DNA of 64,000 nt from Nanoarchaeota archaeon SCGC AAA011-G17 (GTDB lineage: Archaea > Nanobdellota > Nanobdellia > SCGC-AAA011-G17), in assembly GCA_000402515.1 (NCBI GenBank), contig AQRL01000038.1, positions 37,344 to 101,343 on the forward strand, read 5' to 3'. The notes under the pieces were generated by a model, which made no database searches, was not told the origin of the DNA, and saw only the letters and a program-made list of their open reading frames with translations. Position 1 is the stretch's first letter. Each line of letters opens with the position of its first letter. The translations under genes and the position numbers were made by a program. Shown here in pieces: positions 11,560 through 58,700 of the stretch.

Positions 11560-14500
11560 TTAGATTATATGCTCTTTTCCTATCTTTGCCATAACTAAGT
11601 TATGCATCCTTTGTATGAATTCCTGTTTGTCTTCTATTTTATAGATATCTGTATGCGCCTGTATTATTAAGTTGAATGCAAATGGAGAGGGTATTGTTGT
11701 ATTTATTTCTTTTATTTTTATTTTTTCATCTTCAATCTGTTTCAGAACTAATTCTGCATTATTAATGTCCATCAGGTCTTCAAAAACCTCCCTCTTTGTT
11801 TCTTTTATTAGTGAGAAATTTGGAGAGATTCTTTTTAATGCGTTCATCAAAATCATTGAAGAGACCTGCTGCCTTCCAACTCTTTTTTTATAACCCTTAT
11901 ACTCCCTTAAAATCATTAAAGAGCGAGTTGCTACATGCCTAAACCTTCTTGAAAGAACCTGTGTTTTATCTATTGCCAGTTCCATTATTTTCTGCAGTTC
12001 AGATGATTTTATTTTTGAAAGGGCCTGTGTTGCCTGAATATTTGTTTCAGAAGAAAGATAAAAACCATTGTCGTTTATTCCTATTTCAACGTCTTTGTGC
12101 TGAAACCTTGAGATTGCATAGGCTAATGCCCTTGATAATACATCATTTACCCTCCTTCCGTATAATGAATGGAAGATTACGTATTTTTTTTTGTCTCCTG
12201 CATAGCAGTATTCAATCACGATTTTTTTATCATTTGGAATCTCTTTTTTATAGAGGAACTGCTCCCTAAAATATTCATAAATTGCATTTGCTGCATTTTC
12301 ATCTATGTAGAGATAATCGAGAATGAACTTAATAATCTCCTCTTTATTTCTTTTTGCCAGCATTTTTTCTTCAACTAACCTCCTGAATTTTCCTATTTCT
12401 AATGCCAAATCAAAGGATAAAGGAAGCATTTCTGAGAACCAGGAGGGGATTGTTGGAAGTTTGCTGACTGTTGCCTGGACTTGGGCGGTCATTCCACGAC
12501 TGAATAGGAAAATGTATCTATTTCCTCCCAATATGAAAACATCTCCTCTTTTTAGCTTCTCAAGAAATAATTCATCTATATGGCCTACAGTCTGCTCTCC
12601 TATTTTTACTGAGATAAAGGATTCATCTGGAATTGTTCCTATATTGGTCATGTAAATCATTCTTGCTAGTTTTCCCTTTTTTCCAATCATGCCTGTTTCT
12701 TTGTCATACCAGATTTTTGCATAGATATGGCGGTCTTCTAGGCTTGAATATTCCCCTGATAGATATTCTATTATTTCCCTGAAGTCTGTCATTGACAAAT
12801 CTTTATATGGGTAAGCCTGCCTTACTAGATTGTATAACTCTTTATAGCTAATCTGATTTGAGATTGCTATTCCGTAGATCTGCTGGGCAAGAACATCGAG
12901 GCAGTTTTTTGGAATGTGAATCTTGTCTATTTTTTTTTCTATTGCTGATTTTAAAAGTACAGAGCACTCTACTAAATCATCCCTGTCTAATACTATAATC
13001 CTTCCTTTTGATGTTTCATGCAGCTTGTGCCCTGACCTGCCAATTCTCTGAATCGCTCGAGCTATACTTTTAGGACTTCCCAATAGAATTACTAAATCAA
13101 TATAACCAATATCCAAACCTAACTCTAATGATGTACTACAAACAACTACCTTTAATTTTCCTTCCCTTAGTTTTTGCTCTATGTTAAAGCGGTGCTCTTT
13201 TGACAGAGAGCCGTGATGGGCTCCAATATTTTCTGTATAATTCTGGGGGAATTTATCTTTAAGATGATAGACTACTCTTTCTGTTGCTGAACGTGTGTTT
13301 GTGAATATCAGGGTTGTTTTATGTTGCTGTATCAAGGAATCAATTAAGTTATACATCTCGGTATGGAGCTTTTCTGGTTCAATATTAATTATGTCGGGCA
13401 CTGGAGAAAGAACTTTTAGATCCATTTTTTTGATAAACTGAGAATCAACTATTTTACATGGTCGTGTTTTTCCATTTTCCAGTCCTACTAAGAATTGCGC
13501 TATTTCTTCTAATGGCGAAATTGTAGCTGAAAGGCCTATTCTTGTTAGTGGTTCTTTTGTTAGGGCTTGTAATCTTTCTAGAGATAGTGATAAATGAGTG
13601 CCTCGTTTCGAATCTGCTAAGGCATGAATCTCGTCTATTACCAGATATCTTGTACTTTTTAGATGTTCTATGAATTTTGTTGAGGTCAAAACAATTGCCA
13701 ATGATTCCGGAGTACAAAGAAGAATATGGGGAGCTTTGTTGGACATCTTTTGCTTTTCAGATGCTGTTGTATCTCCTGTTCTTACTGCTATTCTTATCCC
13801 AAATTTCTTTTCTGCTAATTTTTCTATTTCTTCCAGTGGTGTTTTTAGATTAACTTCTATATCCCTTGTTAATGCCTTAAGCGGAGAAACGTAAACAGCG
13901 TATGTTTTGTCTTCCAACATATTATTTTCTGAGAGATTTATTAATTCATTTAGGATTGAGAGAAATGCTGTTAAGGTATTATGCAGGTATATTCCCCCAT
14001 ACCCTCCAACGAAATTATGTATATCTGGAACTGTTAAATCAATAACTTTTCCATTATATTCAAACTCCTTAATTTCTTTTACTTTAAGCCAACAAATATT
14101 TTTATTTAACAACTCGTCAATTTCTTTAAATAAACCATTTAAATTTTTATTATTAAACTTTATAATTTTGTTTTTTAAATTTGTTAAAGCAATTTCAGTT
14201 ATATAACCTGTTCTTCTTACTACTTCATAAATAGTTCCAAATTCTTTATTAAATTCTATATCATTTTTACATAGTTTTGACAAGTTTCTAATCTTTTTGT
14301 AATCAAATTTATGTTTTAAAACACATTCTCCGTTAGATTTTTTTAGTATTTGTTTTTCTAATAAAAAATGGTTTGGATGATCTATATCTACTTCTTCTAA
14401 GAATAATTTAATATTTTTTATTTTTCTAATAATCAAGGAATAATATTCTCTTCTAGTTTTATTTATTGTATTTGAAGCATACCTTATTGGCTTGTTTATG

Positions 14501-15858
14501 GAGGAAAATATACCCAATGATAATAGTAAATAATTGATAATTTCAATCTTATTTTTATTAGATTGATGTAAGATAATCTCTCCACCTTCTTTTGAAATTG
14601 TAGATTCCAAAGAAAAAAATACATTTAGAAAATTAGTTTTTATATCTTTCTTTGCATCAAGAAGCCAGTTTGGTAAAGAAACATATCTTCCTCTTCCGAT
14701 TTTTATTTCTAATAAATCTCTTAAAAAATAACAAAATAATGTAAAATCTACAGAATAATCTTTTTCATTTTTTTGTTTGAACTTCACATCAAATAGTTTT
14801 TTGCTATTCTTAAAAAATTCTTTTAACAAATATTTTCTATTCTTTTGTGAAACAGCTAAGTGAGTTCCCCTTTCATAATCCCCAATAAACCCCTCTGCAA
14901 GAACAAATGATAACCACCTTGCTAACTTTATATCTACTTTTTTAGGATATCTAAAAGAGAAAGTATTATTCCCCTTGTTTTTAACAATTATCCTGTTTTT
15001 TTCAAATTTAACTTTTTTACATTCTTTTTTAAATAAATTAAATAATAATTCTTTTTTATAATTTGTTTGCTTGTTGAATAAATTATATACCTGGCTTATT
15101 GATAATCCTATTTTATTCCCTAAGTCAGCAAAGGATGTTTTTTGTAAGGTCTTAATTTCATACAGTTCTTTGATAGTTAAATTATTAAAATTGTTAAAAT
15201 TATTTGTTTTCTTTTTTAATCTTAAATAATCTTCATAAATAATGGATATTCCAGCTTTATCTTTTAAATTTTGTATTGCTAGCTTGTAATCCAGAAAAAT
15301 CTCTCTCTCAGGCAATTTAATTGTTTTTGGTACAGCTATTTTATCTTCTTTTTTGATATCTTTTGCAGGAACCCATCCTTTTCCTTCAACGAGTAATGGA
15401 TGATCTTTGCTGAGTTTTATTTCCCGACCATATTCTGTCCTTATTTTCAATAATGTATCTTTGGTGTCTTCAAAATAAACTAATGCCTTTGTCTTTTTAA
15501 TTTGATTTTCGTCCAATGAAAAACTTTTTAGAGATGATAGACTGTATAACTCTCCTGTTTTATCAATATTTGTTATTTTTTTACCTTTCTTTTTTGCTAT
15601 TTCCATTAATTCTTCTGCCTTTAGCAATTTTGTACGACCATCTAACTCTAATAAAATATTTGTATCTGGAGTTATGCATTTTGTTGCTCCTGTTGGTGCT
15701 GATATTAGAATGTTATTTTCATTATGAATTTCCATTACGCCATATAGCTGTGGGAGTGAAAACTCCTTAAACTTTGTAAAGAACCACTGCTTTACTATTG
15801 GGTTTAGGATTTTCTCTATCTGCTCTTTTGTGTGAGGTTTTTCCAAATAGGTTATCAT
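11560..15858 (-). CDS. lhr: Lhr-type ATP-dependent helicase (DEAH/DExH box) interrupted by an in-frame intein
   Basis: The extein reads 'SAPTGATK|TLTAFLSIL', 'YVSPLKALTRD', 'RTGDT', 'LLCTPESL', 'LVIDEIHAL'. These are Lhr-core motifs. The extein is ~865 aa. Confidence 0.8.
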   Translation of the reverse strand: MITYLEKPHTKEQIEKILNPIVKQWFFTKFKEFSLPQLYGVMEIHNENNILISAPTGATKCITPDTNILLELDGRTKLLKAEELMEIAKKKGKKITNIDKTGELYSLSSLKSFSLDENQIKKTKALVYFEDTKDTLLKIRTEYGREIKLSKDHPLLVEGKGWVPAKDIKKEDKIAVPKTIKLPEREIFLDYKLAIQNLKDKAGISIIYEDYLRLKKKTNNFNNFNNLTIKELYEIKTLQKTSFADLGNKIGLSISQVYNLFNKQTNYKKELLFNLFKKECKKVKFEKNRIIVKNKGNNTFSFRYPKKVDIKLARWLSFVLAEGFIGDYERGTHLAVSQKNRKYLLKEFFKNSKKLFDVKFKQKNEKDYSVDFTLFCYFLRDLLEIKIGRGRYVSLPNWLLDAKKDIKTNFLNVFFSLESTISKEGGEIILHQSNKNKIEIINYLLLSLGIFSSINKPIRYASNTINKTRREYYSLIIRKIKNIKLFLEEVDIDHPNHFLLEKQILKKSNGECVLKHKFDYKKIRNLSKLCKNDIEFNKEFGTIYEVVRRTGYITEIALTNLKNKIIKFNNKNLNGLFKEIDELLNKNICWLKVKEIKEFEYNGKVIDLTVPDIHNFVGGYGGIYLHNTLTAFLSILNELINLSENNMLEDKTYAVYVSPLKALTRDIEVNLKTPLEEIEKLAEKKFGIRIAVRTGDTTASEKQKMSNKAPHILLCTPESLAIVLTSTKFIEHLKSTRYLVIDEIHALADSKRGTHLSLSLERLQALTKEPLTRIGLSATISPLEEIAQFLVGLENGKTRPCKIVDSQFIKKMDLKVLSPVPDIINIEPEKLHTEMYNLIDSLIQQHKTTLIFTNTRSATERVVYHLKDKFPQNYTENIGAHHGSLSKEHRFNIEQKLREGKLKVVVCSTSLELGLDIGYIDLVILLGSPKSIARAIQRIGRSGHKLHETSKGRIIVLDRDDLVECSVLLKSAIEKKIDKIHIPKNCLDVLAQQIYGIAISNQISYKELYNLVRQAYPYKDLSMTDFREIIEYLSGEYSSLEDRHIYAKIWYDKETGMIGKKGKLARMIYMTNIGTIPDESFISVKIGEQTVGHIDELFLEKLKRGDVFILGGNRYIFLFSRGMTAQVQATVSKLPTIPSWFSEMLPLSFDLALEIGKFRRLVEEKMLAKRNKEEIIKFILDYLYIDENAANAIYEYFREQFLYKKEIPNDKKIVIEYCYAGDKKKYVIFHSLYGRRVNDVLSRALAYAISRFQHKDVEIGINDNGFYLSSETNIQATQALSKIKSSELQKIMELAIDKTQVLSRRFRHVATRSLMILREYKGYKKRVGRQQVSSMILMNALKRISPNFSLIKETKREVFEDLMDINNAELVLKQIEDEKIKIKEINTTIPSPFAFNLIIQAHTDIYKIEDKQEFIQRMHNLVMAKIGKEHII
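13978..15678 (-). mobile_element. Intein (567 aa) with LAGLIDADG homing-endonuclease domain, inserted between Lys and Thr of the Lhr Walker-A motif
   Basis: It starts with Cys ('CITPDTNILLELDG') and ends 'VGGYGGIYLHN', followed by Thr+1. DOD motifs are 'WLSFVLAEGFIGD' and 'FLNVFFSLEST'. Confidence 0.8.
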
Positions 15859-15976
15859 TATAAAATATTAATAAATTAGATTTATAAAGGCTACGAGGGC
15901 ATGTCAAGTGTGTCAAGTGAATGGAAGATATATATTGTAGTATATACTTTAATGTCTAAAATTTCTTTTAAAAAGC

Positions 15977-16720
15977 TTACTTTTTAGATATTTTCCATAA
16001 CAATTCAAAATGCTTTCTTTGAGTTTCTGCTATTTCTCTGCTTTTTATTAAAATCCCAAAAGGTTGTGAGCCCCACATTATAATTGATACTTTTTCCCCA
16101 TAAATGTTTGTTGAGGAATTAGAAGTAAATTCTTTTGATAGTATCCTTGCTTCTGTATGTTTTAGTTTATTCAGCTCTTTAACTCTTTGTCTTAAATCTT
16201 CAGATAATAAAATTTTATAGTATATTTTCTTTTTTTCTCTTATCTTATGAAATTTTGGAAGATTAAATTGTAGATGATATTGGAATGCTTCTGCTTCTAT
16301 TTCTGATGCCCCTATTGTAAGAATCTCATCTTTTTGATTTAACATATCATCTAATAATGATTTTATCCCCCTATTCCCCTTAAAAATAGTTGCTTCCTGC
16401 TCTTCTTTCTGTCTTTTTTCTTTTAATTCTGGGAGTATTTTCTTAAATTCCTCTTCCTGCTGCTTTATTTTTTCTTTTTCTTGACTAAAATAATCTAAAA
16501 ATTGCTCTGGATTAGAAGCCTTGAAATATTTCCTATTTGCCTGTATTACATATGAAGCCAGACCCTTTTCTATTAACTTATTTAAAGCATCATAGACTAT
16601 TTGCCTGTGCAATCTCGTTTTTTCTATAACTGCTTTTGCTGATGTTAGCCCTATTTCCAGCAATGCAAGATAAACATCAGACTCATTCTTTGTTAATCCC
16701 AACTTCTCTAGTTCTTTCAT
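15977..16720 (-). CDS. TrmB-family transcriptional regulator (paralog 2 of 3)
   Basis: 'LGLTKNESDVYLALLEIGLTSAKAVIEKTRLHRQIVYDALNKLIEKGL' is a TrmB HTH. The C-terminus 'LLWKISKK' is shared with the other paralogs. Confidence 0.7.
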   Translation of the reverse strand: MKELEKLGLTKNESDVYLALLEIGLTSAKAVIEKTRLHRQIVYDALNKLIEKGLASYVIQANRKYFKASNPEQFLDYFSQEKEKIKQQEEEFKKILPELKEKRQKEEQEATIFKGNRGIKSLLDDMLNQKDEILTIGASEIEAEAFQYHLQFNLPKFHKIREKKKIYYKILLSEDLRQRVKELNKLKHTEARILSKEFTSNSSTNIYGEKVSIIMWGSQPFGILIKSREIAETQRKHFELLWKISKK

Positions 16721-16833
16721 AAATTTTGATTGATTTTTTGTTATATAAATCTTACTATTATCGTCATTTATTTGATGACAATATTTTAAATATACTATTT
16801 GTAAAAACTAGCTAGTAATGAATAAGGAAAAAA

Positions 16834-17355
16834 ATGATAGGGAAAGATGGAAGAGATTATACCTCCACGGATGCTAAAAATGCTGAATCTAGAGGAGATT
16901 ATGAAAAAGCATTTGAGATATATAAACTTGGGTGGGATAATCATGGATTAGAGCTAGCTATAAGAATAAATGATTCTAATAGGTTTAAGGAGTTTTATGA
17001 TGAAGGATTGACAATAATGATGCTTGAGAGTGAATATTTAAGGGCTCTTGAAATTGCTAAGAATAATGGAGATACAAAAAGATTAAAAGAAATTTATAAT
17101 GCAGGGTTAAATCATTTTAGTAATATAAGTTATTTTAATGAAGCAATAAAATTAGTTGAATTTATGGGTGATGACCCTAAAAGAGAGACTCTTTATCAAA
17201 AAGCAGAAGATGAAGCAAATCTGAGATTGAGTTCTTACGAGAAACAATTAAAAAAAATGTTAATGAAAGTAGGAGTATGGACTAAAATAAGAGATGCTTG
17301 TAGAGAAAGAAGTAATGTTCTCGATGATTTACTTAAAATTGAGAATAAAATATAA
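16834..17355 (+). CDS. Hypothetical protein
   Basis: ORF only, helical-repeat-like. Confidence 0.35.
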   Translation: MIGKDGRDYTSTDAKNAESRGDYEKAFEIYKLGWDNHGLELAIRINDSNRFKEFYDEGLTIMMLESEYLRALEIAKNNGDTKRLKEIYNAGLNHFSNISYFNEAIKLVEFMGDDPKRETLYQKAEDEANLRLSSYEKQLKKMLMKVGVWTKIRDACRERSNVLDDLLKIENKI

Positions 17356-17356
17356 A

Positions 17357-17716
17357 ATGGCATTTAAGAGATATGAACTAAAACTTGAAAATCGTATGGA
17401 TGAAGTATCCTGTTTATCAGACGAGAAGAAATTATTTGATAAGCAAATTAGAGATAGTTATTCTAATTGTCAGGTAAAACTTTATCCTTCTACTTATGAT
17501 ATAAATGGAAATACAATAATTATGAGGGGGGAAGAAATAAGTGATGGATATGGATATATAGATGGTCGGCTTAGATTAACAGCATTGATTATTGGAAAAT
17601 CCAAAGAAATTCTTAATGTTAAATCACGCTTGGAAAAAAAGACTTCATTTAAACTTAAAGAGTTAGAATACGATCATCGAATGAATAATCCAGAAGCTAC
17701 GATAAAACCACTATAA
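17357..17716 (+). CDS. Hypothetical protein
   Basis: ORF only. The ATG at 17357 immediately follows the upstream stop; the listed 17294 start would overlap. Confidence 0.35.
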   Translation: MAFKRYELKLENRMDEVSCLSDEKKLFDKQIRDSYSNCQVKLYPSTYDINGNTIIMRGEEISDGYGYIDGRLRLTALIIGKSKEILNVKSRLEKKTSFKLKELEYDHRMNNPEATIKPL

Positions 17717-17831
17717 CACAATCAACAAAATAAGATTAATAGAGAAAAGTAAGTTATCATTTTCTTATACAAAATAGGAAGTTATTTAAGGCTGATTAGC
17801 ATAATTATTAAAAAATAAATGGGGTGATAAA

Positions 17832-22056: not shown

Positions 22057-25000
22057 GTGATGGCAGTAATAGAAAAGATTAAGATGCAGGGATTTAAGTC
22101 CTTTGCCAAGTCTACTGAAGTTCCTTTAGGCAAGGATTTTAGTGTTATACTAGGCCCTAATGGCTCTGGTAAATGCCTAATTGGCAGTTCTTTAGTACAG
22201 TTAAATGATGGCTCCTTGGTTGAAATAGGTAAAATAGTTGAGGATAAATTGAAGACCAACTCTATTAAAAAAATAGATGATGGCTTTATAGCTGAAGGGG
22301 ATGATACTAAGATTATTTCTTTAAATTTAAATAACCTGAAAAATGAGGCTAAAGAGATTAAGGCTTATGTTAAAAGGGAATCTCCTGAATATTTATTAAG
22401 AATTAAGACAAGAAGCGGCAGGGAAATTACCAGTACAGAATATCATCCTTTATTTGTTTTTGAGGAGAATAGGATTAGGGCTGTTAAAGCTGACGAACTA
22501 AAAATAGGGGTTAAAATAGCTGTTCCGAGGCAGATTAGTATTGGAAAAAATAATTATTTTTATGAGTTAATTGATTTAATTGACAAAGGTGATAGAATTT
22601 ATGTTTCTTATAATGAAGAGTTTATTTGTATTTTAAATAAGTTAAAAAAATCTACATGGAAAGACTTGGCTAATGAGATAGGAATTCCTTTGAATGCTAT
22701 TAAGGGACTATTAGATAAACAGGCTATTAATTTTGCTTATTTAATTAAACTACTTAAACACTCTAAATTAAGTAATCAGGAAATAATAAAACTCATTCCT
22801 TATGTTAAATCAAAAGGCATTGAAAGAAAATATAAAGTTCCATGGTGTAATTCCAGAGAATTTTCAAGATTTTTTGGATATTTAATTGCTGAAGGAAGGT
22901 TACCAGAATCAAGTAATCAAATATGGTTTACAAATGGGGATGAGGAGATTGTTAGTGATTATGCTAATCTAGTCGCTCATTTGTTTGAAGTTAAGCCAAG
23001 CATTAATGAATATAAAGAGGGATGCTGGGATGTTTTGTTTTATTCTGTTCCAATAAGACAGATTTTAGATAAATTTGGCATGCATGTTGGTGGAAAAACC
23101 GAAAATAAAGAACTAACTAATTTATTTTTAAAAAACAGTTCTGATATAGAATTGGGAGAATTTTTATCCGGACTTTATTCCGGGGATGGCTATGTGGGAA
23201 AAAGCAGCATTGATATAATAACCAAGAGCAGAAAGTTGGGTTTTAATATTGAGAATATTTTGGTAAGATTGGGCATATTATTTAGCTCAAGATATAAAAT
23301 TAAAATTGCTACCAACAGTGGTTTTAGCGGGATTTATAGAGAAATTTCAGTATATGGCGTTGAGAATTTCTTAAAGTTTAAAAAATATGTCAATATAGTC
23401 CATAATTCAAAGAGAGAAAGGCTTGATAATCTTTTGGGCGTTAAGTCAAATCCAAATTTAGATGTTATAGATGTTAATAATTTAATAAGGAAGGTTGTTA
23501 AAGAGTTTAATATAAAAATAAAATCAAATAAGAAAGAATTTCCAAGATTAGGTGCCTATTGTTATAAACAATGTTTACCGAGCAGGAGCGGTATAAACTA
23601 TTTGATTGATAATTTGTTTTCTAACTCTAATGAACATGAGAATTTATTACTGTTAAAACAAATAGCTAACTCTGATATTTATTGGGATGAAATTATTGAG
23701 ATTGAAAAGATAAAAAGCAATGAGAAATGGGTTTATGACCTATGTATTGAAGATAATCATAATTTTATTGCGAATAATATATTTGTACATAACAGCAACA
23801 TTACAGATGCAATATGTTTTGTTCTCGGAAGATTGAGCGCCAAAAGCCTTAGAGCAGACAAGAGCGCTAATTTAATCTATAATGGGGGGAAAAAGGGGGA
23901 GCCTGCAAAAGAGGCAGAGGTAAGCATTTTGTTTGATAATTCTAATAAGTTATTTCCATTAAATGTCAGCAAGATAAAGATTACAAGAAGCGTCAGAGAA
24001 AACGGGCAGAGCAAGTACAAAATAAATGATGAAATCAGGACAAGGCAGCAGGTCATAGATTTATTGGCTGCTGGAAAGATAAATCCAGATGGGTATAATA
24101 TTGTTCTGCAGGGAGATATTACACATGTTACTGAGATGCCTACAGAGGAGAGGAGAAAGGTTATTGAGGATATTTCCGGCATTGGTGTTTATGAGGAAAA
24201 AAAAGAAAAGGCAATTAATGAATTAACAAAGGTTGATGTGAAATTAAATGAGGCAAGCATTGTTCTGAAGGAGAGAGAAACCTATCTTAGTGAGCTAAAA
24301 AAAGACAGGGATCATGCTGCTAAATACAAGGATCTTGAAGGCAATATCAAGAGGAATAAGGCTACCTTTTTGCATGTTCAGATTAATGACAAACAAAAGA
24401 AGAGGGAAGAGTTTGAAGGCAAGATTAATAAAAATCAGGAAGAGGCTGATAAGATAAGAAAGACGGTTGATGAATTGAGAGAGGAAATTAACAAAAATAA
24501 GGAAGAGATTAGTTCTATCAGCAAGGAAATAGAGGAGAAGGGAGAGAAAGAGCAGGTTAATCTTCACAGAGAGATTGAAACTGTTAAAGAGCAGAAGGCC
24601 AGAGACCAGGCAAGAATGGAGGGTTTGGGCAATGAGCTTAACAGGATTAATGAGAGAAAGAAACAATTAGAGATTGATTTAAGAGAAATAACTGAAAAGA
24701 TAAAACAACTGGAAAATGAGAGAAATAATTTAACAAAAAGAAGAAAGATTATTGTTGAAAAAGAGAGCATCATTGAAAAGAAATTAGGAGGAAAAAGAGG
24801 AGATAACAAGGAAGAGAGGGATTTAGACGAGATTGAAAAAAAGCTGGATGAAAAACAATTTATCCTGGATGAATTAAATAACAAGAAAACAATTTTGTTA
24901 AGGGATAAAGACAGATTAGACACACAGATAAATTCTCTGAATAAATTAAGCGGCGGAGATGAATTAAAAAAATTAAAAGAGTTTAAAGAGAAATTTAAAG

Positions 25001-27072
25001 AGGTTTCCAGTAATCTTAATAGTTCTTTAAAAGATAATGATAATATTGTTTCACAGCTTTCCAAGGCAAGAAGCAAATTAAGAGAGATAAGCGAGGAGCA
25101 GGCCAGATTAAGCATAAGAGAGGTTAGTTTCAAAGAAGGGGCTTATGGCGACCTTGCTTTAAACAAGATAAAAGAGCTTAGAATGAATGGGGTGTATGGG
25201 ACAATAGCTGAGCTTGGTGAGGTTGACAAGAAGTTTTCTATGGCTTTGGAGGTTGCTGCCGGCTCCAGAATAAAAAGTATTGTTGTTGAGGATGATTCTA
25301 TTGCTGCCAAGTGCATCAAATATTTAAAAGACAATAAACTAGGTGTTGTTACTTTCCTGCCTTTGAACAAAATAAAGGCTCCTGAAGCAATTGATAAAAA
25401 AGTGGGTTATGGCATTGCCCTGAATCTAATAAAATTTGACAACAAATTCAGCAGGGCATTTGGCTATGTTTTTGGAAATACAATTGTTGTTGAGAATATA
25501 AACCAGGCAAGAAATATCGGCATTGGAAAGGACAGGATGGTTACTTTAGATGGGGATTTAGTTGAGGGCTCTGGAGCAATGATTGGTGGTTTCAGAAGGC
25601 AAAAAACAGGATTTAAACAGATGGATTTTACAAAGAACCTTGAAGAGCTTAATAATGAGATTGGAAGATTAAGAGAGATTGTAGATAGTTTAGAGAAGAA
25701 AAAATTAGAGAATGAGGATAATGTTTATCTGTTAAGAAACGATAAGTCTGAATTAGAGGGAGAGATTATAAAACTGGAGAAGAGCTTTGGCGGGGAAGAA
25801 GAGAAAAATGAAAGAGAATCAGCTGTTAAAAATCTAAATAGTGTTGAAAGGGAATTAAATAATGCTGAAGCAAATTACAATAAATTGCTTAAGGATGTTG
25901 AAGAATTAAAAAATAAAAAAAGCTCTTTGAGAGAGAGTGTAAGCAAGATAAGAGGAAACAAAGAAACTGATAAAATAGATTCTGAGTTCAGGCAGATTAG
26001 AGAAGAAAGAATTGTTTTGGAGAATGAATTAAAAAATATTGAGATACAGATAAGAGACGGATTAATTCCAGAAAGAGAAAATATAATCAGGATTATTAAA
26101 GAGCATGAAAAAGAGATTTTAGAATTCCAGAAAGAGAGCGAGGATATCAGTGATAGACTTCTTAAAAATCTTAATCTTTTAAAAGATAAGGAGAGGAATG
26201 AAAAGGAATTTTATTCTAATTTCAAAAATTTATTTAACAAGAGAAACAAATTAAGCGATGAAATACAAAAGAGGGAATTAAAGAGTGTAAGTGAGTATAG
26301 CAGAGTTAGGGCAATTGAGGACAGAACTAACAGCCTGAATATTGATAGGGCAAAGGTATGTGCTGAATTAGAAGGTCTTAATGCTGAATATGAGCAGTTT
26401 AAGGAAATTCAATTAAGAAAAGGAATTGAAATGGATAAATTAAAAGAGGAAATCAGAGATTTTGAAAAGATGATGAATAATCTTGGGAATGTTAATCTAA
26501 GAGCCTTGGAGATTTATGATGAGATTGAAAAGGAGTATAATTCTTTACAGGACAAGGCTGCTACACTAAAATTAGAGAAAGAGGATGTACTAAAGATGAT
26601 TAGTGAGATAGAAAGCAAGAAAGGAGATATGTTTATGAAGAGCTATTCTGAGATAAGCAGGAATTTTGAGAGAATCTTTTCCGAATTGACTGACAAGGGA
26701 ACTGCACATCTTATTTTGGATGATAAGGACAATCCATTTAACGGCGGATTGAAGATTATGGTAAGGATTGCTAAAGGGAAATATCTGGATATCAAGAGCT
26801 TATCCGGGGGAGAAAAGACTCTGACTGCCTTGGCTTTCATATTTGCTATACAGGAATATGACCCTGGGCATTTCTATGTCTTTGATGAGGTTGATGCGGC
26901 TCTGGACAAGACTAATTCCTCTAAATTAGCTAAATTGTTAAGAAAGTACAGCGATAAGGCGCAGTATATTGTTATAAGCCATAATGACAATTTGATTTCT
27001 GAGGCTAATCAGCTATACGGCGTTAGTATGACTGAGAATGGAATGAGCAAGGTTATCAGCTTAAAGGTTTAA
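22057..27072 (+). CDS. smc: Chromosome segregation protein SMC interrupted by an in-frame intein
   Basis: The extein reads 'FKSFAKSTEVPLGKDFSVILGPNGSGK|SNITDAICFVLG' (SMC N-terminal Walker A). It has long coiled coils. C-terminal 'LSGGEKTLTALAFIFAIQ' (signature motif) and 'FYVFDEVDAALD' (Walker B) are present. Confidence 0.85.
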   Translation: MMAVIEKIKMQGFKSFAKSTEVPLGKDFSVILGPNGSGKCLIGSSLVQLNDGSLVEIGKIVEDKLKTNSIKKIDDGFIAEGDDTKIISLNLNNLKNEAKEIKAYVKRESPEYLLRIKTRSGREITSTEYHPLFVFEENRIRAVKADELKIGVKIAVPRQISIGKNNYFYELIDLIDKGDRIYVSYNEEFICILNKLKKSTWKDLANEIGIPLNAIKGLLDKQAINFAYLIKLLKHSKLSNQEIIKLIPYVKSKGIERKYKVPWCNSREFSRFFGYLIAEGRLPESSNQIWFTNGDEEIVSDYANLVAHLFEVKPSINEYKEGCWDVLFYSVPIRQILDKFGMHVGGKTENKELTNLFLKNSSDIELGEFLSGLYSGDGYVGKSSIDIITKSRKLGFNIENILVRLGILFSSRYKIKIATNSGFSGIYREISVYGVENFLKFKKYVNIVHNSKRERLDNLLGVKSNPNLDVIDVNNLIRKVVKEFNIKIKSNKKEFPRLGAYCYKQCLPSRSGINYLIDNLFSNSNEHENLLLLKQIANSDIYWDEIIEIEKIKSNEKWVYDLCIEDNHNFIANNIFVHNSNITDAICFVLGRLSAKSLRADKSANLIYNGGKKGEPAKEAEVSILFDNSNKLFPLNVSKIKITRSVRENGQSKYKINDEIRTRQQVIDLLAAGKINPDGYNIVLQGDITHVTEMPTEERRKVIEDISGIGVYEEKKEKAINELTKVDVKLNEASIVLKERETYLSELKKDRDHAAKYKDLEGNIKRNKATFLHVQINDKQKKREEFEGKINKNQEEADKIRKTVDELREEINKNKEEISSISKEIEEKGEKEQVNLHREIETVKEQKARDQARMEGLGNELNRINERKKQLEIDLREITEKIKQLENERNNLTKRRKIIVEKESIIEKKLGGKRGDNKEERDLDEIEKKLDEKQFILDELNNKKTILLRDKDRLDTQINSLNKLSGGDELKKLKEFKEKFKEVSSNLNSSLKDNDNIVSQLSKARSKLREISEEQARLSIREVSFKEGAYGDLALNKIKELRMNGVYGTIAELGEVDKKFSMALEVAAGSRIKSIVVEDDSIAAKCIKYLKDNKLGVVTFLPLNKIKAPEAIDKKVGYGIALNLIKFDNKFSRAFGYVFGNTIVVENINQARNIGIGKDRMVTLDGDLVEGSGAMIGGFRRQKTGFKQMDFTKNLEELNNEIGRLREIVDSLEKKKLENEDNVYLLRNDKSELEGEIIKLEKSFGGEEEKNERESAVKNLNSVERELNNAEANYNKLLKDVEELKNKKSSLRESVSKIRGNKETDKIDSEFRQIREERIVLENELKNIEIQIRDGLIPERENIIRIIKEHEKEILEFQKESEDISDRLLKNLNLLKDKERNEKEFYSNFKNLFNKRNKLSDEIQKRELKSVSEYSRVRAIEDRTNSLNIDRAKVCAELEGLNAEYEQFKEIQLRKGIEMDKLKEEIRDFEKMMNNLGNVNLRALEIYDEIEKEYNSLQDKAATLKLEKEDVLKMISEIESKKGDMFMKSYSEISRNFERIFSELTDKGTAHLILDDKDNPFNGGLKIMVRIAKGKYLDIKSLSGGEKTLTALAFIFAIQEYDPGHFYVFDEVDAALDKTNSSKLAKLLRKYSDKAQYIVISHNDNLISEANQLYGVSMTENGMSKVISLKV
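22174..23793 (+). mobile_element. Intein (540 aa) with LAGLIDADG homing-endonuclease domain, inserted between Lys and Ser of the SMC Walker-A motif
   Basis: It starts 'CLIGSSLVQLNDG' and ends 'NFIANNIFVHN', followed by Ser+1. DOD motifs are 'FFGYLIAEGRL' and 'FLSGLYSGDGYV'. Confidence 0.85.
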
Positions 27073-30646: not shown

Positions 30647-33073
30647 TTATAAACCTTTCTGTTGGTTCTTTAGGTCAATAAAAAAGTATTTTGTCTCGGT
30701 ATCCTTGTTATTACTTACAGTTACAGCAATTACTTCCTGTTTCCTATCTGTATTCACTGGCAGTTTAAACATGAAGGTCTGTGTCTTTACTTCTTTTGGA
30801 TTTAGGTCAAAGCTTGATGAATATTGTATCTGGTTAAGCTCTGGCAGGGATATTGTTACTCTAACATCCTTTTCCTTTAATCCTGCAAAATTTGCTGCAA
30901 ATACTGTTACTGGGAAATACTCTCCAGGAACTACATTTTTCATGCTGTTAACTATTACTCTTTCGATTCCAATATCATGCTTTGTAGCTCTTAGTGACTT
31001 TGCTTCTTCTGTTACTGTAATCACTGCTGTTTTTTTAGATTCTAAAACACCATCTGTAACTTTGAAAATTAGATTATAGTTACCTAGTGAGCCTGGCACC
31101 CAGGTGAATAACTGATTGTTAAATGCTGCTCCCTCTGGCTTGTTTTCTGCACTGAAGGTTAGTTCATTACTGCCATCATACTGTGCTGAAATTGTGAACT
31201 CTACTTTCTGCCCTAATTTTATTTCCTGTGATGGAATATCATTCAGGCTTAAGTGGAATTCTACTGGCTCTGTGTATTTTGGAAGAACCTTGATTAGTAT
31301 TTCCTGCGTTGCTTCTGCCATGCCATCAGATGCTATTATTATTGAGATGTATTCTCCTGCATCCCCTACTCTTGTCTGCCATTCACCATTCTGGTTTAAT
31401 GGAGAGGTGTAGGAATAGGTTAATTTGTCAAAGTCCAAATCTGTAAATGAATTTCTTGGAACTATCTTTACCAAGTCTCCCTCTGTTACTATAATCGGAC
31501 CTATTGGATTAACTATATGCGGCAATCTGTTAACATCCTTTACTGAGATTATTACTTCCTGCTGGGCATTCAAACTTCCTGCAGATGCCTTGAATGTTAG
31601 TTTAAACTCACATTTTCCGTCATTTCTGCACTGCTTCCCATTTGTGAAATAGTTTGTTATGAATATCTTTATTGTGTCAATAAATGTCCTTTCATGGCTT
31701 ACTGTGTTGTAATCAGGAGTCCAAGCGAATTTATAGCCCAGTAATGGGGCTGGATAATTTAGTACTCCTGGGCCATAGACTGGCTCAAAGGCTGCTCCAC
31801 TTGGCAGGTTTTCTGCAGAATAGTCTATCTTTTGATTTCCATTATAATAAGATGGAGTTACAAAGAAGGTTAATTCTGAGCCTTCATTTACACCCTGATT
31901 AGGTATGAATTTCAAGTCTAGTACTTGTTCTGTTGGAGTTGTTTTTTCGTGAACGGTTAATGGAATTGTCAATACTTGTGATGGATAGTTGCTTATTCCA
32001 TTACATTTTGGATCCTCTGGCATTCCTTCTACTCTTATTGTGTAATCCCCTGCTTTATTTGGTGTCCATGTAAATGAAAACTCTTTTGTATTCTTTAGAT
32101 AGTAATAGGTGTAAGTATAAGCTACTTTCCCGCTTGAATCTTTTACTGTTAGCTTAACTTTATCTTTTACAGGCTCTGTATTCTGGTAGTTATCAATGTA
32201 ATAGGATGATTTATCCCCTGTGATTGTTATTAATTCTCCTACTTCTGCATCAATTGGATTTGATGTTCCTGGTCTATTTAGAATGGTGTAGCAGGCATTT
32301 TGCGGAACATTTTCATGAACCTTGAATTCTGCACTAGCTGTATTTGTTTTTGAAGATGAGCATTTTGAATCAACTACATCTGTTGTTATAAACGCTACAT
32401 AATCATCCTCTAGTGTTGGTGTCCATGTAAATTCAACTGATTGTGAAGAATCCATGAAGATATTTAGTGTCTTTGATTCTTTATATTCATAAGTTGAAAT
32501 ATTGAGATTAGATTTCTTGTAAATCCATAGTGTTACTTTTGTTTCAGCTGAATAGAAATCCCTGTACTCTGCTGGTATGAAAGCAGGTGTATTGCTATTT
32601 GAATGTAATGCTGAATAGGTATCTGCATCTAGTGAAGCTGGAACTTTGATTATTAATGGGATGTTCGGTCTTACATCATTTAGAACTTCAATATGGTCAA
32701 TAGGTGCTGAGCACTGGGCTTTCTTCTCTAGAGTAACTAGTTCAGTTGATTCACCATTTCCATAAACACTCTTGAATGCTTCTTTTCCAAGATATCCCTG
32801 CTTAAAGGCATAAACAGCATATCCGTATTGTGTTGGCAGATTTGTTGGGTACCATACTTTTATATCATAATTTGGATCATTGGCATTTGTATTCCCATTT
32901 GCATGAGGCGTTACAGAACTACAAGATGCATCATTACAAGTATAGGCTAGAAAATTAACATTGTCTAATTTATTCCCATCTTTATTCTGAAATTCATAAG
33001 TCATAATTACCTGAGCACTAGCTAGACTTATTAAAAATACAAATAAGATAGGGATTAAAAGTAATTTTTTCAT
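30647..33073 (-). CDS. Large secreted adhesin-like protein (808 aa) with multiple Ig/cadherin-like repeat modules
   Basis: Signal peptide 'MKKLLLIPILFVFLISLASAQ'. Repeated '...FTWTP...' beta-sandwich-like modules. No TM. Confidence 0.5.
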   Translation of the reverse strand: MKKLLLIPILFVFLISLASAQVIMTYEFQNKDGNKLDNVNFLAYTCNDASCSSVTPHANGNTNANDPNYDIKVWYPTNLPTQYGYAVYAFKQGYLGKEAFKSVYGNGESTELVTLEKKAQCSAPIDHIEVLNDVRPNIPLIIKVPASLDADTYSALHSNSNTPAFIPAEYRDFYSAETKVTLWIYKKSNLNISTYEYKESKTLNIFMDSSQSVEFTWTPTLEDDYVAFITTDVVDSKCSSSKTNTASAEFKVHENVPQNACYTILNRPGTSNPIDAEVGELITITGDKSSYYIDNYQNTEPVKDKVKLTVKDSSGKVAYTYTYYYLKNTKEFSFTWTPNKAGDYTIRVEGMPEDPKCNGISNYPSQVLTIPLTVHEKTTPTEQVLDLKFIPNQGVNEGSELTFFVTPSYYNGNQKIDYSAENLPSGAAFEPVYGPGVLNYPAPLLGYKFAWTPDYNTVSHERTFIDTIKIFITNYFTNGKQCRNDGKCEFKLTFKASAGSLNAQQEVIISVKDVNRLPHIVNPIGPIIVTEGDLVKIVPRNSFTDLDFDKLTYSYTSPLNQNGEWQTRVGDAGEYISIIIASDGMAEATQEILIKVLPKYTEPVEFHLSLNDIPSQEIKLGQKVEFTISAQYDGSNELTFSAENKPEGAAFNNQLFTWVPGSLGNYNLIFKVTDGVLESKKTAVITVTEEAKSLRATKHDIGIERVIVNSMKNVVPGEYFPVTVFAANFAGLKEKDVRVTISLPELNQIQYSSSFDLNPKEVKTQTFMFKLPVNTDRKQEVIAVTVSNNKDTETKYFFIDLKNQQKGL

Positions 33074-40959: not shown

Positions 40960-42810
40960 ATGAACAAGAAGGATATTTTATTTCCCTATGATGAATTGAG
41001 GAAGGGGCAGGAGGATTTTATTGTTGATGTAAATAATTCTATTTTATTCGGTGGAAAATTAATTGGAAGTGTTCCTACTGGTGTTGGAAAGACTGTTTCT
41101 GTTTTAAGCCCTCTGGTTTCATTTGTTCTTGACAGGAATTACTGCGGTTTTTTTCTTACTCCAAAACATACACAGCATAAACTTGCTATTAATACTTTAA
41201 GACTGATAAAAGAGAGATATAAAATTAAATTTAATGCTGTTGATTTTATCGGCAAGAGGTTCATGTGCGGGCAGGAGGGGGTGGCTGTTCTGAGCAATGG
41301 TGAGTTTCATGAATACTGCAGGGATATTAGAGAGAAGGGAACATGCGACTTTTATAACAACTGTACAAACAAGAAGAGCAGTGCTAAAAAAGAATTATTA
41401 ATAGAGAGATTAAAGGAATTGGGTCCTTTGCATGTTGAGGATGTGTGCAAGCTTTGCATTGATGAAGGATTCTGCCCGTTTGAGATAAGCTGTATGATTG
41501 CCAAAGAGTCCAAAGTTATTATCGGGGATTATTACCATATTTTAAGCACTGGAGTAAGGGATGCTTTGTTTCTTAAGATTAATAAAAGTCTTGATAAGAG
41601 TATTTTGATATTTGATGAGGGGCATAATCTGATCAGCAGAGTAAGGGATTTAATGACTGTCAATCTAAGCAGTTTTATCCTGGACAATGCAATCAAAGAG
41701 GCTAATAATTTTCATTATGATGAGTATGCTGATATTTTAAATGAATTAAAAAACAAATTAGAGAATCTGAATAAAGATAAATTAAGTGTTGAGATTAATG
41801 AGGGTTTGGTCAAGAAACAGGATTTTATTTTTAATGAGCAGTATATCCAGGACTTTTCTATAATAGCTGATGAGGTCAGGGAAGTAAAGAAGAGGAGCTT
41901 TATCGGACTAGTTGGAGGTTTTTTAGAGGCATGGCTCGGGGGTGAAACAGGCTATGCAAGAATATTACAGCGTGGATTTTTAAAATCAGGAAAAGTAAAT
42001 ATCAGCCTGAGCTATAGATGTTTAGACCCTTCTTTAATTACAAAGAAGATAATTGACGAGGCCTATTCTGTAATTGTGATGAGCGGAACTTTACTGCCAT
42101 TAGAGATGTACAGGGATTTATTAGGATTTTCAGATGTTAAGATGAAGGAATATGATAATCCGTTTCCTGTTGAGAATAAATTAAGTTTAATAGTCCCTAA
42201 TATCAGCACTAAATTTACAAAGAGGAATGAGGAGATGTACAAGAGGATTGCAAATGAGGTTTCAGAGATAGTAAATAATGTTCCAGGCAATGTTGCTGTT
42301 TTTTTCCCAAGCTATAATATTCTGAAAGATGTTGACAGGTTTACTGTTATTAAAAAAACAGGATTTTATGAAAGGCAGGGGTTGACCAAAGAGGAGAGGG
42401 ATGAGGTAATTGAGAAATTCAAGAGCCATAAAGATCATGGGGGAGTATTATTTGGGGTTTCTGGCGGAAGCTTTTCAGAGGGGATTGATTTAATCGGGGA
42501 TTATCTGAAGGGAGTAGTTGTTGTTGGACTGCCGTTATCAAGACCTGATGTTGAGACAAAAGAATTGATAAAATATTATGATGATAAATTTTCTAAGGGA
42601 TGGGATTATGGATATATATTACCGGGAATGACGAAGGCAATACAGGCTTCTGGAAGATGCATTAGGTCAGAGACTGACAAGGGAGTAATTATTTTCCTAG
42701 ATGAGAGGTATACCTGGGATATGTATCACAGATGCTTTCCAAAAGACTGGGATATTAAAATAAGTAAGCTACCTGTTGAGAGAATAAATAGATTTTTTAC
42801 TTCAAAGTAG
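40960..42810 (+). CDS. xpd: XPD/Rad3-family 5'-3' DNA helicase with 4Fe-4S domain
   Basis: Walker A 'SVPTGVGKT'. Four Cys in 'FMCGQ...EYCRDIREKGTCDFYNNC'. DEAH box 'IFDEGHNL'. ~616 aa. Confidence 0.8.
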   Translation: MNKKDILFPYDELRKGQEDFIVDVNNSILFGGKLIGSVPTGVGKTVSVLSPLVSFVLDRNYCGFFLTPKHTQHKLAINTLRLIKERYKIKFNAVDFIGKRFMCGQEGVAVLSNGEFHEYCRDIREKGTCDFYNNCTNKKSSAKKELLIERLKELGPLHVEDVCKLCIDEGFCPFEISCMIAKESKVIIGDYYHILSTGVRDALFLKINKSLDKSILIFDEGHNLISRVRDLMTVNLSSFILDNAIKEANNFHYDEYADILNELKNKLENLNKDKLSVEINEGLVKKQDFIFNEQYIQDFSIIADEVREVKKRSFIGLVGGFLEAWLGGETGYARILQRGFLKSGKVNISLSYRCLDPSLITKKIIDEAYSVIVMSGTLLPLEMYRDLLGFSDVKMKEYDNPFPVENKLSLIVPNISTKFTKRNEEMYKRIANEVSEIVNNVPGNVAVFFPSYNILKDVDRFTVIKKTGFYERQGLTKEERDEVIEKFKSHKDHGGVLFGVSGGSFSEGIDLIGDYLKGVVVVGLPLSRPDVETKELIKYYDDKFSKGWDYGYILPGMTKAIQASGRCIRSETDKGVIIFLDERYTWDMYHRCFPKDWDIKISKLPVERINRFFTSK

Positions 42811-55709: not shown

Positions 55710-58700
55710 TTATACACATTCCTCTGTGCTGAGATAATTAAGGAGCTTTATCATGTCGTGTATATCTGTTTTACCGTCCTGATTTACATCTGCCTTATTA
55801 TCCTCTGTGTTTAGTATCTTTAGTATTTCAAGCAAATCATAGACATCTACCTTATCATCCTTTGTTATATCTGCATACTGCTTACAGCTTGGGTTAATAA
55901 TCAAAACTGTCTTTGCTGCTGCTGCTGTTAGTGTGGCTTTTGATACCTCCAAGGTTATTCTCTGCTGCCCTGTTGTTGTGTAAAAGTGTGTTGTTGCTGG
56001 TGTATCAAGATAAGGTGTATCAAATGCGCCATCATTATTGAAGTCCCATCTGTATCTTAGTTTCTCATCACATCTCTTTGTATCAAGTAATTTTGTCAGC
56101 TTGTAAATGTCTATAGCATCAATCTTTCCGTCAGCATTTAAATCTCCCTTCTTAACAGGGGATTGTTTCGTCAAGGATAGTAATTCGATAAGGTCAAAAA
56201 TATTTATTTTATTATTTGAATCCAGATCAGCGTTCTTACACTCTGGGTCGTAACTTGAATCTGCATTTAATGTGAAATTTAATCCTATTCCTCCCTTATC
56301 CGGGGTTGATGTGAAGCTTGCTAGTATTGAGGAGAAGGAAACATCGAATCCTTCATCTATCTGTCCATCACAATCATTGTCTTTTCTATCAAAGATTTCT
56401 GTTGCTCCTGGATATGATTCTTTATTAAGATCATCACAGTCATTTGTCTTTCTTGCTGTGTAATAGCCTTCTGATTTTTCTAATTCCTTGAATCTGGAGG
56501 TTCCGTAGCCATCCTTATCAAAGTCGTAATAGAACTTGAATAATTCTACTGGCTTTACCTCTGTTTTCTTTCCCATTGTGAACAGGGATAAGTGATTAGT
56601 AATTGCCCATACATAATTCTCCTCTGTGTTTACACCTGAGTTTGGCTCCTGGACCCAGTCTTTCAGATCTTCATTATAGTAATACATACGTAATTCTGAT
56701 TCTGGAGTAGTTCCAAGATCTTCTGGATCTCTGTAATGCATCTTTAATAATGCCTGCTTGATGTCATTCTCTATCTGTGCTTCTGGTTCTATAACCATGA
56801 ATTTTTGATTTGTTAATCCGGGTAGTGTAAAGCTCTGCTCTGCTGGCATTTCATCGTATACCTTTACAGTAATGCTTCCTGATTGTTGCTCATTTGTTGA
56901 TATGCTTAATTCAAATCCTGTTTCATCTTCATTTGTTTCTATCTTTGATAGTGTTTGTTCAGCTTGTTGCAGTGTTTCTACGATTGTTGTTATTAATGGG
57001 ACTAGAACATCCTGCTTTGTTTCCATCTTTGGTGGCTCTGAGCCTATGCATGTTCCCCAAACACCTGTTGACTGACATGTCTTTGTTCCTCCGACTCCGC
57101 AGATATTTGTTGCTGCCGGCTTACAATCTTGCAATGAACCGGATTCTGAATTATCTGTTAGACTTGAGCAGTCAAGGTCGTTAAGATCTGAAAATCCGTC
57201 ATTATCATTATCTAGATTATCATTACACTGGTTTGGTGTTTCTGGGATTGGGATGATACAATTATTTCCTGATTTTACATAGCCAACGTCACAGGTGTAT
57301 TCACACTTTTGAGAAGAGCATGAAGATACTAAATTTCTTGATGCATCTGCTGTTAAACCCTTATTATCGTCTGTGCATAATCCAGAATTTGCTGGGATTA
57401 ATCCTGTACATAGTGGAGGAAGTTGTAAGGTACAACTATTTCCTGATTTTGTATAGCCAGAAGGACATATATATTCACACTTATTAGCATCAGTACAACT
57501 GTTTGCCAGACTTCTTGTTGTGTCTACTAGTAAATTCTTATTATCATCTGCACATAACTGGGCATTAGATATAGTTGCTCCTGTACATGAGAAGGTTGGT
57601 GGGATAACTGCACACTCATTTCCTGATTTTGTAAATCCTGATGAACAAGTATATTCACATTTTACAGTTGTACATGAGGATGTTAAACTTCTTGTTGTGT
57701 TTGCTGTTAATCCAGTATCATCATCTGCACATAACTGGGCATTAGATATAGTTGCTCCTGTACATGAGAAGGTTGGTGGGATAACTGCACAGACATTATT
57801 TTCATCAATCAAGTTATTACAATTATTATCTATTCCATCACATATTTCTGTTGATGGTGTGCATGTTGGCTGACAGATGTTTCCTTCATCTACATTTCCA
57901 TCACAATCATTATCTATATCATCACATTTTTCAATTCCAGGCTCTATCTCAGACTGAGTAAGCGACCATGAGCCTGAAACACAGGTGTTTATTTCTTTTC
58001 TGCATGCCCCTTCATCTGTTCCTGTTTCTGCTGTTAAATCCTCATCTATTATATTATTACAATTATCATCCTTGTTATTACAGACTTCTGCTGCTGATGG
58101 TTTTTCTCCTATACAGGCAGACCATTTTCCAGCTGTACAGGTTTGAGTTCCAAATTTACACTCTCCTGTATTTGAAGAACCACATGGCTTTGTATCCCCA
58201 CTCTGGCATTCACCAACTGTAAATGTGCTTGAATCTTTTGCATATTCAAAGGAGTTTATTTCCCCGACTGAATTTACCTTTAGCGTTGCCTTGAAATTTC
58301 CAGCTGTCAGTGATTCTGAAGAAACATCCCATGTAATTGTGTATGATAAAATACCTGTGAAGCCAAATCCGGTTCCTCCGTAGCCATAGCCATAGCCGAA
58401 TAGAGTTCCCTGGTAATTATTATTTGCACCATAGCCATAACCATATAATTGTTCACTTGTTCCATAATCCCCTGAATTTGTTCTGGTTATTGTCAGGTAA
58501 TCACAGCCTGAAACCTTTGTGCCATCTGGGTAAAAAACACATTCTTTTAAAAATGGAAGAGAATTATCATAAATCTGCAACTTTAAGGTCTGAATAGGAA
58601 TTCTTTCATTAGCTGGAATATCTATCCCTACATTGAAATTAATTGTTTCTGTTTTCAGATAACTTGCTTTGTTTGTTGTTATGCTCAAGTCTACTGCATT

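Follow-up and report, generated by a model that had tools for sequence, protein, structure and literature searches.

The stretch of DNA analysed here, called the window throughout, comprises 64,000 nucleotides of Nanoarchaeota archaeon SCGC AAA011-G17 (assembly GCA_000402515.1, contig AQRL01000038.1, positions 37,344 to 101,343 of the forward strand). On the reverse strand, positions 11560..15858 form one unbroken open reading frame of 1432 codons plus a stop, which encodes the precursor of an Lhr helicase. Within this frame lies an insert of 567 residues that separates the lysine of the Walker A motif, or P-loop, from the threonine that follows it. With a probability of roughly 0.9, the insert belongs to the canonical class 1 inteins and carries within it a LAGLIDADG homing endonuclease with two motifs, in frame after the Walker A lysine of Lhr. 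The features of the precursor are listed below in the order of translation. Residues of the intein are numbered from Cys1, a slash marks a junction between extein and intein, and residue conservation refers throughout to an alignment of 31 inteins at the same Lhr codon.

11560..15858, reverse strand: open reading frame of the Lhr precursor, made up of a 60-residue N-extein, the 567-residue intein and an 805-residue C-extein.
15679..15858, reverse strand: N-extein, residues 1-60, ending with the first part of Walker A, APTGATK (nucleotides 15679-15699), which aligns to APTGSGK of M. smegmatis Lhr.
13978..15678, reverse strand: probable intein, 567 residues (61-627 of the precursor), of the 'helicase-b' allele, assigned by hidden Markov model matches and by identity to a published sequence.
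15676..15678, reverse strand: Cys1 codon, the block A nucleophile, invariant in 31 of 31.
15391..15411, reverse strand: block B, SKDHPLL (Ser90, His93), which aligns to block B of the Pho RadA and CDC21-1 inteins.
14878..14916, reverse strand: LAGLIDADG motif 1, WLSFVLAEGFIGD (Glu262; residues 255-267); Glu262 is matched by an acidic residue in PI-PkoII (VSEG) and in the Pyrococcus V-ATPase (VMA) intein (IADG).
14599..14631, reverse strand: LAGLIDADG motif 2, FLNVFFSLEST (Glu358; residues 350-360); Glu358 is matched by an acidic residue in PI-PkoII (IGDG) and in the VMA intein (VCDG).
14002..14046, reverse strand: block F, VIDLTVPDIHNFVGG (Asp547), which aligns to block F of solved inteins; Asp547 is invariant in 31 of 31.
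13978..13992, reverse strand: block G, IYLHN (His566, Asn567), both residues invariant in 31 of 31, with a match to TIGR01443.
11560..13977, reverse strand: C-extein, starting with Thr+1 (13975-13977), which is the Walker A threonine, and continuing with the rest of RecA1, RecA2, the winged-helix domain and domain 4; collinear with an intein-free relative (P0170).

The host gene is identified by what lies outside the insert. Pfam recognises DEAD, Helicase_C, WH_Lhr (1.7e-33) and DEAD_assoc (1.6e-56) domains there, and the precursor scores 1181 bits against the NCBIfam model PRK13767. The spliced protein aligns over its full length with the core structure of M. smegmatis Lhr (5v9x; 2.6e-116), in which the intein junction maps to APTGSGK-TLAAF, that is, to motif I (Walker A) of RecA1. 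The 'Lhr core' architecture of RecA1, RecA2, winged-helix domain and domain 4 (DEAD_assoc) is present in the window protein. A cysteine-rich C-terminal motif is the mark of aLhr1 (Hajj et al. 2021, PMC8301817); by inspection, the last 100 residues of the window protein contain no cysteine, which fits an archaeal Lhr helicase of the aLhr2 type.

The limits of the insert are sharply defined. It splits Walker A between Lys60 and the threonine (APTGATK/C...HN/TLTAF) and ends in ...YLHN, and its deletion leaves an 865-residue protein in which APTGATK is joined to TLTAF. Thr+1 serves as the Walker A threonine, and the TLxAF motif is kept at all junctions of the same site. Given the base composition of the insert (A 45%, T 31%), a run of 567 codons without a stop would arise by chance with a probability of about 2e-27. 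The Pfam model Intein_splicing (PF14890) matches the insert at 6.7e-23 (81.7 bits, against a cut-off of 35.8), and the NCBIfam models for the N-terminal and C-terminal intein regions match at 3.7e-16 (TIGR01445) and 1e-4 (TIGR01443). An earlier sequence-only reading of the window had proposed a 567-residue intein at exactly these coordinates, splitting the Lhr Walker A as GATK/intein/T, starting with Cys and ending with His-Asn before Thr+1. All of this is borne out, in a single frame, and the intein could thus be delimited to the base from the raw sequence alone.

Two details of that reading need amendment. It had described the restored P-loop as canonical for Lhr; Walker A is indeed rebuilt on removal of the insert, but its sequence, G-A-T-K-T, is specific to the clade and departs from the usual G-S-G-K-T. 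The variants found in this clade are G-A-T-K-T in the window, G-S-T-K-T in an intein-free sister genome described below and G-G-T-K-T in a further relative (P0005). In each of them, a threonine replaces the second glycine of the GxGKT that is found in nearly all Lhr proteins. The Walker A variant is independent of the intein. The same reading had anticipated a block B of the form T-x-x-H; blocks A, B, F and G all carry their catalytic residues, free of frameshifts, but block B is S-K-D-H. This falls within the range of the allele, in which His93 is invariant (31 of 31) and position 90, always a hydroxyl residue, is Thr in 22 of 31 and Ser in 9 of 31. With these residues in place, the intein is predicted to splice.

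In sequence and profile comparisons with solved structures, the two halves of the Hint (splicing) domain fall at approximately residues 1-125 and 517-567, the N-terminal half matching best the Pho CDC21-1, Pho RadA and PI-PkoII inteins. Two further segments, approximately residues 130-240 (about 110 residues) and 440-525 (about 85 residues), have no match among the solved structures. A helix-turn-helix was suspected by eye at residues 165-215, where no Pfam or NCBIfam model matches at E <= 0.1. The guanine-plus-cytosine (GC) content of the intein is 24.5%, against 34.6% in the exteins. Low GC content was considered as a sign of recent foreign origin and rejected, since in 23 of 30 hosts the intein lies below its exteins, whatever the GC content of the host.

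The endonuclease core occupies approximately residues 242-424, as delimited by profile search against solved structures, and a Pfam match to LAGLIDADG_3 (PF14528; 1.6e-7, 31.9 bits against a cut-off of 22.5) covers residues 347-430, including motif 2. The two LAGLIDADG motifs lie some 95 residues apart. Both had been noted in the sequence-only reading as retained, and both are found with their acidic residues, Glu262 and Glu358, intact. Among the inteins of the same site, the acidic residue is kept in 28 of 31 at motif 1 and in 26 of 31 at motif 2, and the core (190 residues) is 40-63% identical across phyla. The members that lack acidic residues are shortened ones of 387-486 residues, and three of them (L029-L031) have lost both. 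Such loss together with shortening would be the decay expected late in a homing cycle. By contrast with these shortened members, the endonuclease of the window intein is predicted to be active.

The relatives of the intein are numerous. A word-indexed homolog search with the intein alone returned only 4 matches, probably owing to its Lys/Asn-rich composition. When 1.84 billion representative proteins were searched exhaustively with HMMER, 681 matches were returned, of which 141 have E <= 1e-10. Among the best 149 of the 681 matches, at least 17, which stand for as many metagenomic protein clusters, are Lhr proteins interrupted by an intein at this junction (PTGxxK/C ... HN/TLxAF), including proteins labelled Woesearchaeota, Odinarchaeota and Baldrarchaeota by NCBI. 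Nearly all the remaining relatives are inteins that interrupt other P-loop ATPases at the corresponding position (aIF2-like GTPases, HerA-like ATPases, MCM, RFC, SMC, RadA, V-ATPase, VirB11 and CDC48). Where junctions were located in these best 149 representatives, the N-junction is GK/C or GK/S in 103 of 119 and the C-junction is HN followed by S, T or C in 120 of 122.

A genome scan covered one genome per prokaryotic species, with six of the closer inteins and their 14-residue extein flanks as the query. The Lhr P-loop allele occurs in 32 species-level genomes, with inteins of 387-576 residues. The hosts within DPANN are Woese-, Nano-, Nanohalo- and Undinarchaeota and one Candidatus ainarchaeum metagenome-assembled genome. 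Outside DPANN, the hosts include Asgard lineages and cultured Halobacteria (Natrinema, Halopiger, Halovenus, Haloglomus, Salinibaculum and Natrialba). Some of the loci with the allele (L014, L001, L008) come from bins that carry the labels 'Candidatus Bipolaricaulota bacterium' (63-68% GC) and 'uncultured Methanosarcinales archaeon' (28-41% GC); these labels look unlikely for the gene and may reflect mis-binning or else real transfer.

Lhr genes of related archaea also carry inteins at two more sites. One is motif V (VV/C...KN/[CS]STSLELG; P0006, P0010) and the other is motif VI (LQR/C...HN/CGR[AS]GH; P0005, P0171). Some Lhr genes have the P-loop intein together with a second intein in RecA2, at motif V or VI, which results in precursors of 1880-2100 residues.

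The closest relatives of the window gene mostly lack the intein. In a search with the spliced exteins, 118 of the 120 best matches (66-94% identity) have intein-free lengths, and P0171 has a different intein, at motif VI. The closest match of all (P0170; contig AQSE01000052.1 of assembly GCA_000402735.1) is an intein-free protein of 865 residues that is 94% identical and reads APTGSTK-TLTSF. The spliced coding sequence of the window is 2598 nucleotides long, as is the sister gene, and the two align without gaps. In the DNA that flanks Lhr, the sister contig is 97.5-99.6% identical to the window. Within the gene, identity in the DNA alignment is 80% for the N-extein and 89% for the C-extein. 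Divergence at four-fold sites falls along the spliced gene, from 41% over its first 1200 nucleotides to 26% over the 900 that follow and 11% over the final 500. Since synonymous divergence peaks at the insertion site, the comparison indicates that recombination with a more distant lineage brought in one or the other allele. At the junction itself, the DNA of the window allele without its intein reads ATATCAGCACCAACAGGAGCAACAAAA/ACCTTAACAGCATTTCTCTCA, and the empty site of the sister reads ATCTCAGCTCCCACGGGCTCAACTAAG/ACACTTACAAGTTTCTTATCA.

The neighbourhood of Lhr also differs in gene content between the two contigs. Upstream of Lhr, 1.9 kb (15860-17746) is present in the window only and encodes a TrmB-family regulator (15977-16720, reverse strand) and two open reading frames of 173 and 140 residues that belong to no family. 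Downstream of Lhr, 2.1 kb is present in the sister only (L033 8599-10700) and encodes a TrmB protein, an isochorismatase and a 120-residue open reading frame.

The mechanism that we propose follows established intein chemistry; what the sequence itself contributes is the open frame, the splicing residues, the pair of endonuclease motifs and the exact restoration of the host protein. The gene would be translated as a 1432-residue precursor. This precursor would be dead as an ATPase, its P-loop Lys60 and threonine being held 567 residues apart so that ATP binding and hydrolysis would be impaired. Splicing would start with an N-S acyl shift at Cys1, after which the N-extein would be transferred to the hydroxyl of Thr+1. 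Cyclisation of Asn567, aided by His566, would then free the intein, and an O-N shift would yield APTGATK-TLTAF and an active helicase. The freed intein is expected to cut Lhr alleles that lack it, site-specifically and within the P-loop coding sequence, and repair from an intein-bearing copy would spread the element in the process known as homing.

The patchy spread of the allele across archaeal phyla and its presence and absence in a near-identical pair of genomes fit such homing. It is tempting to go further and to propose that a gain or loss of the intein is still segregating within one DPANN population, and that the divergence gradient, which decays over approximately 2 kb, is the co-conversion tract of recent endonuclease-driven homing from a divergent donor. 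We regard this extension as tentative, with odds well short of even. If true, it would provide direct evidence of active intein homing, and hence of DNA exchange between cells, in host-dependent ultra-small archaea.

Some observations count against the interpretation given so far. An AlphaFold2 model of the intein, built from a six-row alignment, has a mean predicted local distance difference test score of 48.7 and is too poor to lend structural support. The empty site of the sister differs from the window junction at 13 of the 54 surrounding nucleotides. In addition, Lhr lies in a segment of approximately 6 kb with indels on both sides relative to the sister; bracketed in this way, the polymorphism could be explained by ordinary recombination without endonuclease-driven homing. 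Lastly, the donor lineage was not found: the flanks of the window and of the sister are equally close to the exteins of the intein-bearing P0001 (66.9% vs 66.9%) and P0004 (65.2% vs 65.2%).

The same divergence of the empty site and the same neighbouring indels, which suit ordinary recombination in a polymorphic segment, would also fit an intein that splices while its endonuclease is inactive. The intein would then be a resident passenger, late in its homing cycle and passed on only vertically or by general recombination, and L029-L031 show that decay of the endonuclease does occur in the allele family. It is a possible outcome, though we consider it doubtful for the window member. Here, both acidic residues are retained, as is the glycine that follows motif 1, and in the alignment they correspond to catalytic residues of PI-PkoII and the VMA intein; the full length of 567 residues is kept, and the core is conserved across phyla. 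These features argue for a working endonuclease.

Two other explanations fare less well than the spliced, endonuclease-bearing intein. The intein might be kept as a conditional, stress-responsive switch that holds Lhr, a DNA-repair helicase, inactive until splicing, as has been proposed for the P-loop inteins of RadA and DnaB. A position in the P-loop does guarantee an inactive precursor, and such roles have been argued for P-loop inteins (PMC4760082) and suggested for aLhr2 (PMC8301817). However, nothing in the sequence indicates a sensor, the sporadic distribution is the pattern of a selfish element, and the intein is absent from the closest relative and from 118 of the 120 nearest orthologs, so that Lhr function in this lineage does not depend on it; a switch is therefore improbable. 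A degenerate, non-splicing insertion, or a chimera of the single-cell assembly that leaves Lhr as a pseudogene, would be a concern on general grounds, since single-cell amplified genomes are prone to chimeras and the GC content of the insert is 10 points below that of its exteins. Against this stand the 1432 open codons, with the low chance expectation for the insert alone, and the full set of catalytic residues. In 30 other genomes, as well as in many metagenomes, an insert of the same architecture occupies this codon, and the lower GC content is a property of the family. This explanation is effectively refuted.

The intein identified here has been catalogued before. Soucy, Fullmer, Papke and Gogarten (2014; Front Microbiol 5:299, PMC4071816) introduced a new allele under the name 'helicase-b' and listed as its hosts one haloarchaeon, two Bacillus strains and 'Nanoarchaeota archaeon SCGC AAA011-L22' (WP_018204386.1). 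In the supplementary alignment, the SCGC AAA011-L22 sequence is identical to the window intein at 567 of 567 positions. The full 1432-residue precursor, looked up as an exact sequence, matched no record. The Natrinema pallidum DSM 3751 sequence of the same alignment corresponds to our locus L012; this member has the same junction and is 37-38% identical to the window intein. Other Lhr inteins have also been published. Hajj et al. 2021 (PMC8301817) described eleven in aLhr2, ten of them in RecA2 and one in RecA1 (Natrialba magadii), and a 525-residue Lhr intein is known from T. kodakarensis TK0764 (PMC11409957). The P-loop as an intein hotspot is a main theme of Novikova et al. 2016 (PMC4760082). 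The suggestion of the sequence-only reading that this Lhr allele might be unreported therefore does not hold. The intein, the host and the class of site are already documented, and since the exact sequence was catalogued in 2014 as helicase-b, the finding is correct but ordinary.

What is added is modest. The portions of Soucy et al. 2014 that were searched give the name and the taxonomic spread of helicase-b; neither its position in the P-loop nor its splicing residues, the state of its endonuclease or the intein-free sister genome were found described in them. The name can now be assigned to a defined insertion point, directly behind the Walker A lysine of Lhr, and the host range is far wider than the four sequences of 2014. 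Furthermore, there is now a pair of near-identical DPANN genomes, one with the intein and one without, with a divergence gradient centred on the site. This natural pair could be used for the study of homing and co-conversion in DPANN archaea.

The window contains a second intein of this kind, in the gene for SMC:

22174-23793, forward strand: SMC intein, 540 residues, with a LAGLIDADG core, in the SMC gene at 22057-27072; its junctions are GPNGSGK/C...FVHN/SNITD, directly after the Walker A lysine.

The GC content of the SMC intein is 28.8%, against 34.8% in the SMC exteins. Many representative SMC proteins (e.g., P0053, P0061, P0087, P0115) have a related intein at the same site, and a limited literature search found no named SMC intein allele. 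Other genes of the window include an intein-free XPD/Rad3-type helicase with DEAD_2, HBB and Helicase_C_2 domains (40960-42810, forward strand) and two large probable surface proteins (55710-58787 and 30647-33073, both on the reverse strand) with PKD, He_PIG, dockerin and MopE-type metal-binding repeats.

The sequence-only reading had proposed a comparison of the two inteins of the window, and this was carried out. They share the order of domains and the type of site, but they are separate allele lineages: the SMC intein is 26% identical to the Lhr intein and 33-42% identical to SMC inteins elsewhere. Recent copying between the SMC and Lhr P-loop sites within the genome was considered and rejected on the grounds of this low identity, each intein being closer to inteins of the same host protein elsewhere.

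Among known systems, the other published Lhr inteins (Pyrococcus horikoshii, Methanocaldococcus sp. FS406-22, TK0764 and Natrialba magadii; PMC8301817, PMC11409957) share the host family and also contain LAGLIDADG endonucleases. They differ in position, since 10 of the 11 aLhr2 inteins lie in RecA2, whereas that of the window lies in the P-loop of RecA1. The N. magadii intein splits RecA1, as does that of the window, and the P-loop allele was found in the related Natrialba chahannaoensis (L026). In terms of structure, the nearest models are PI-PkoII (PDB 2cw7) and the Pyrococcus V-ATPase intein (PDB 7qss), with profile E-values of 3.9e-27 and 1e-25. Both share with the window intein a split Hint domain that flanks a two-motif LAGLIDADG core, but neither matches its residues 130-240 (approximately) or the roughly 85 residues before the C-terminal Hint half.

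In terms of position, the closest parallels are the P-loop inteins of RadA (Pho RadA), MCM/CDC21 site a, RFC site a, DnaB site b, V-ATPase A, aIF2 and VirB11/KlbA (PMC4760082), which interrupt Walker A at the same point, after the lysine and before a Thr or Ser +1 nucleophile. The P-loop inteins of other ATPases are also the nearest relatives in sequence, yet their hosts differ and their identity to the Lhr intein is only about 22-33%. Each P-loop host site carries its own intein lineage.

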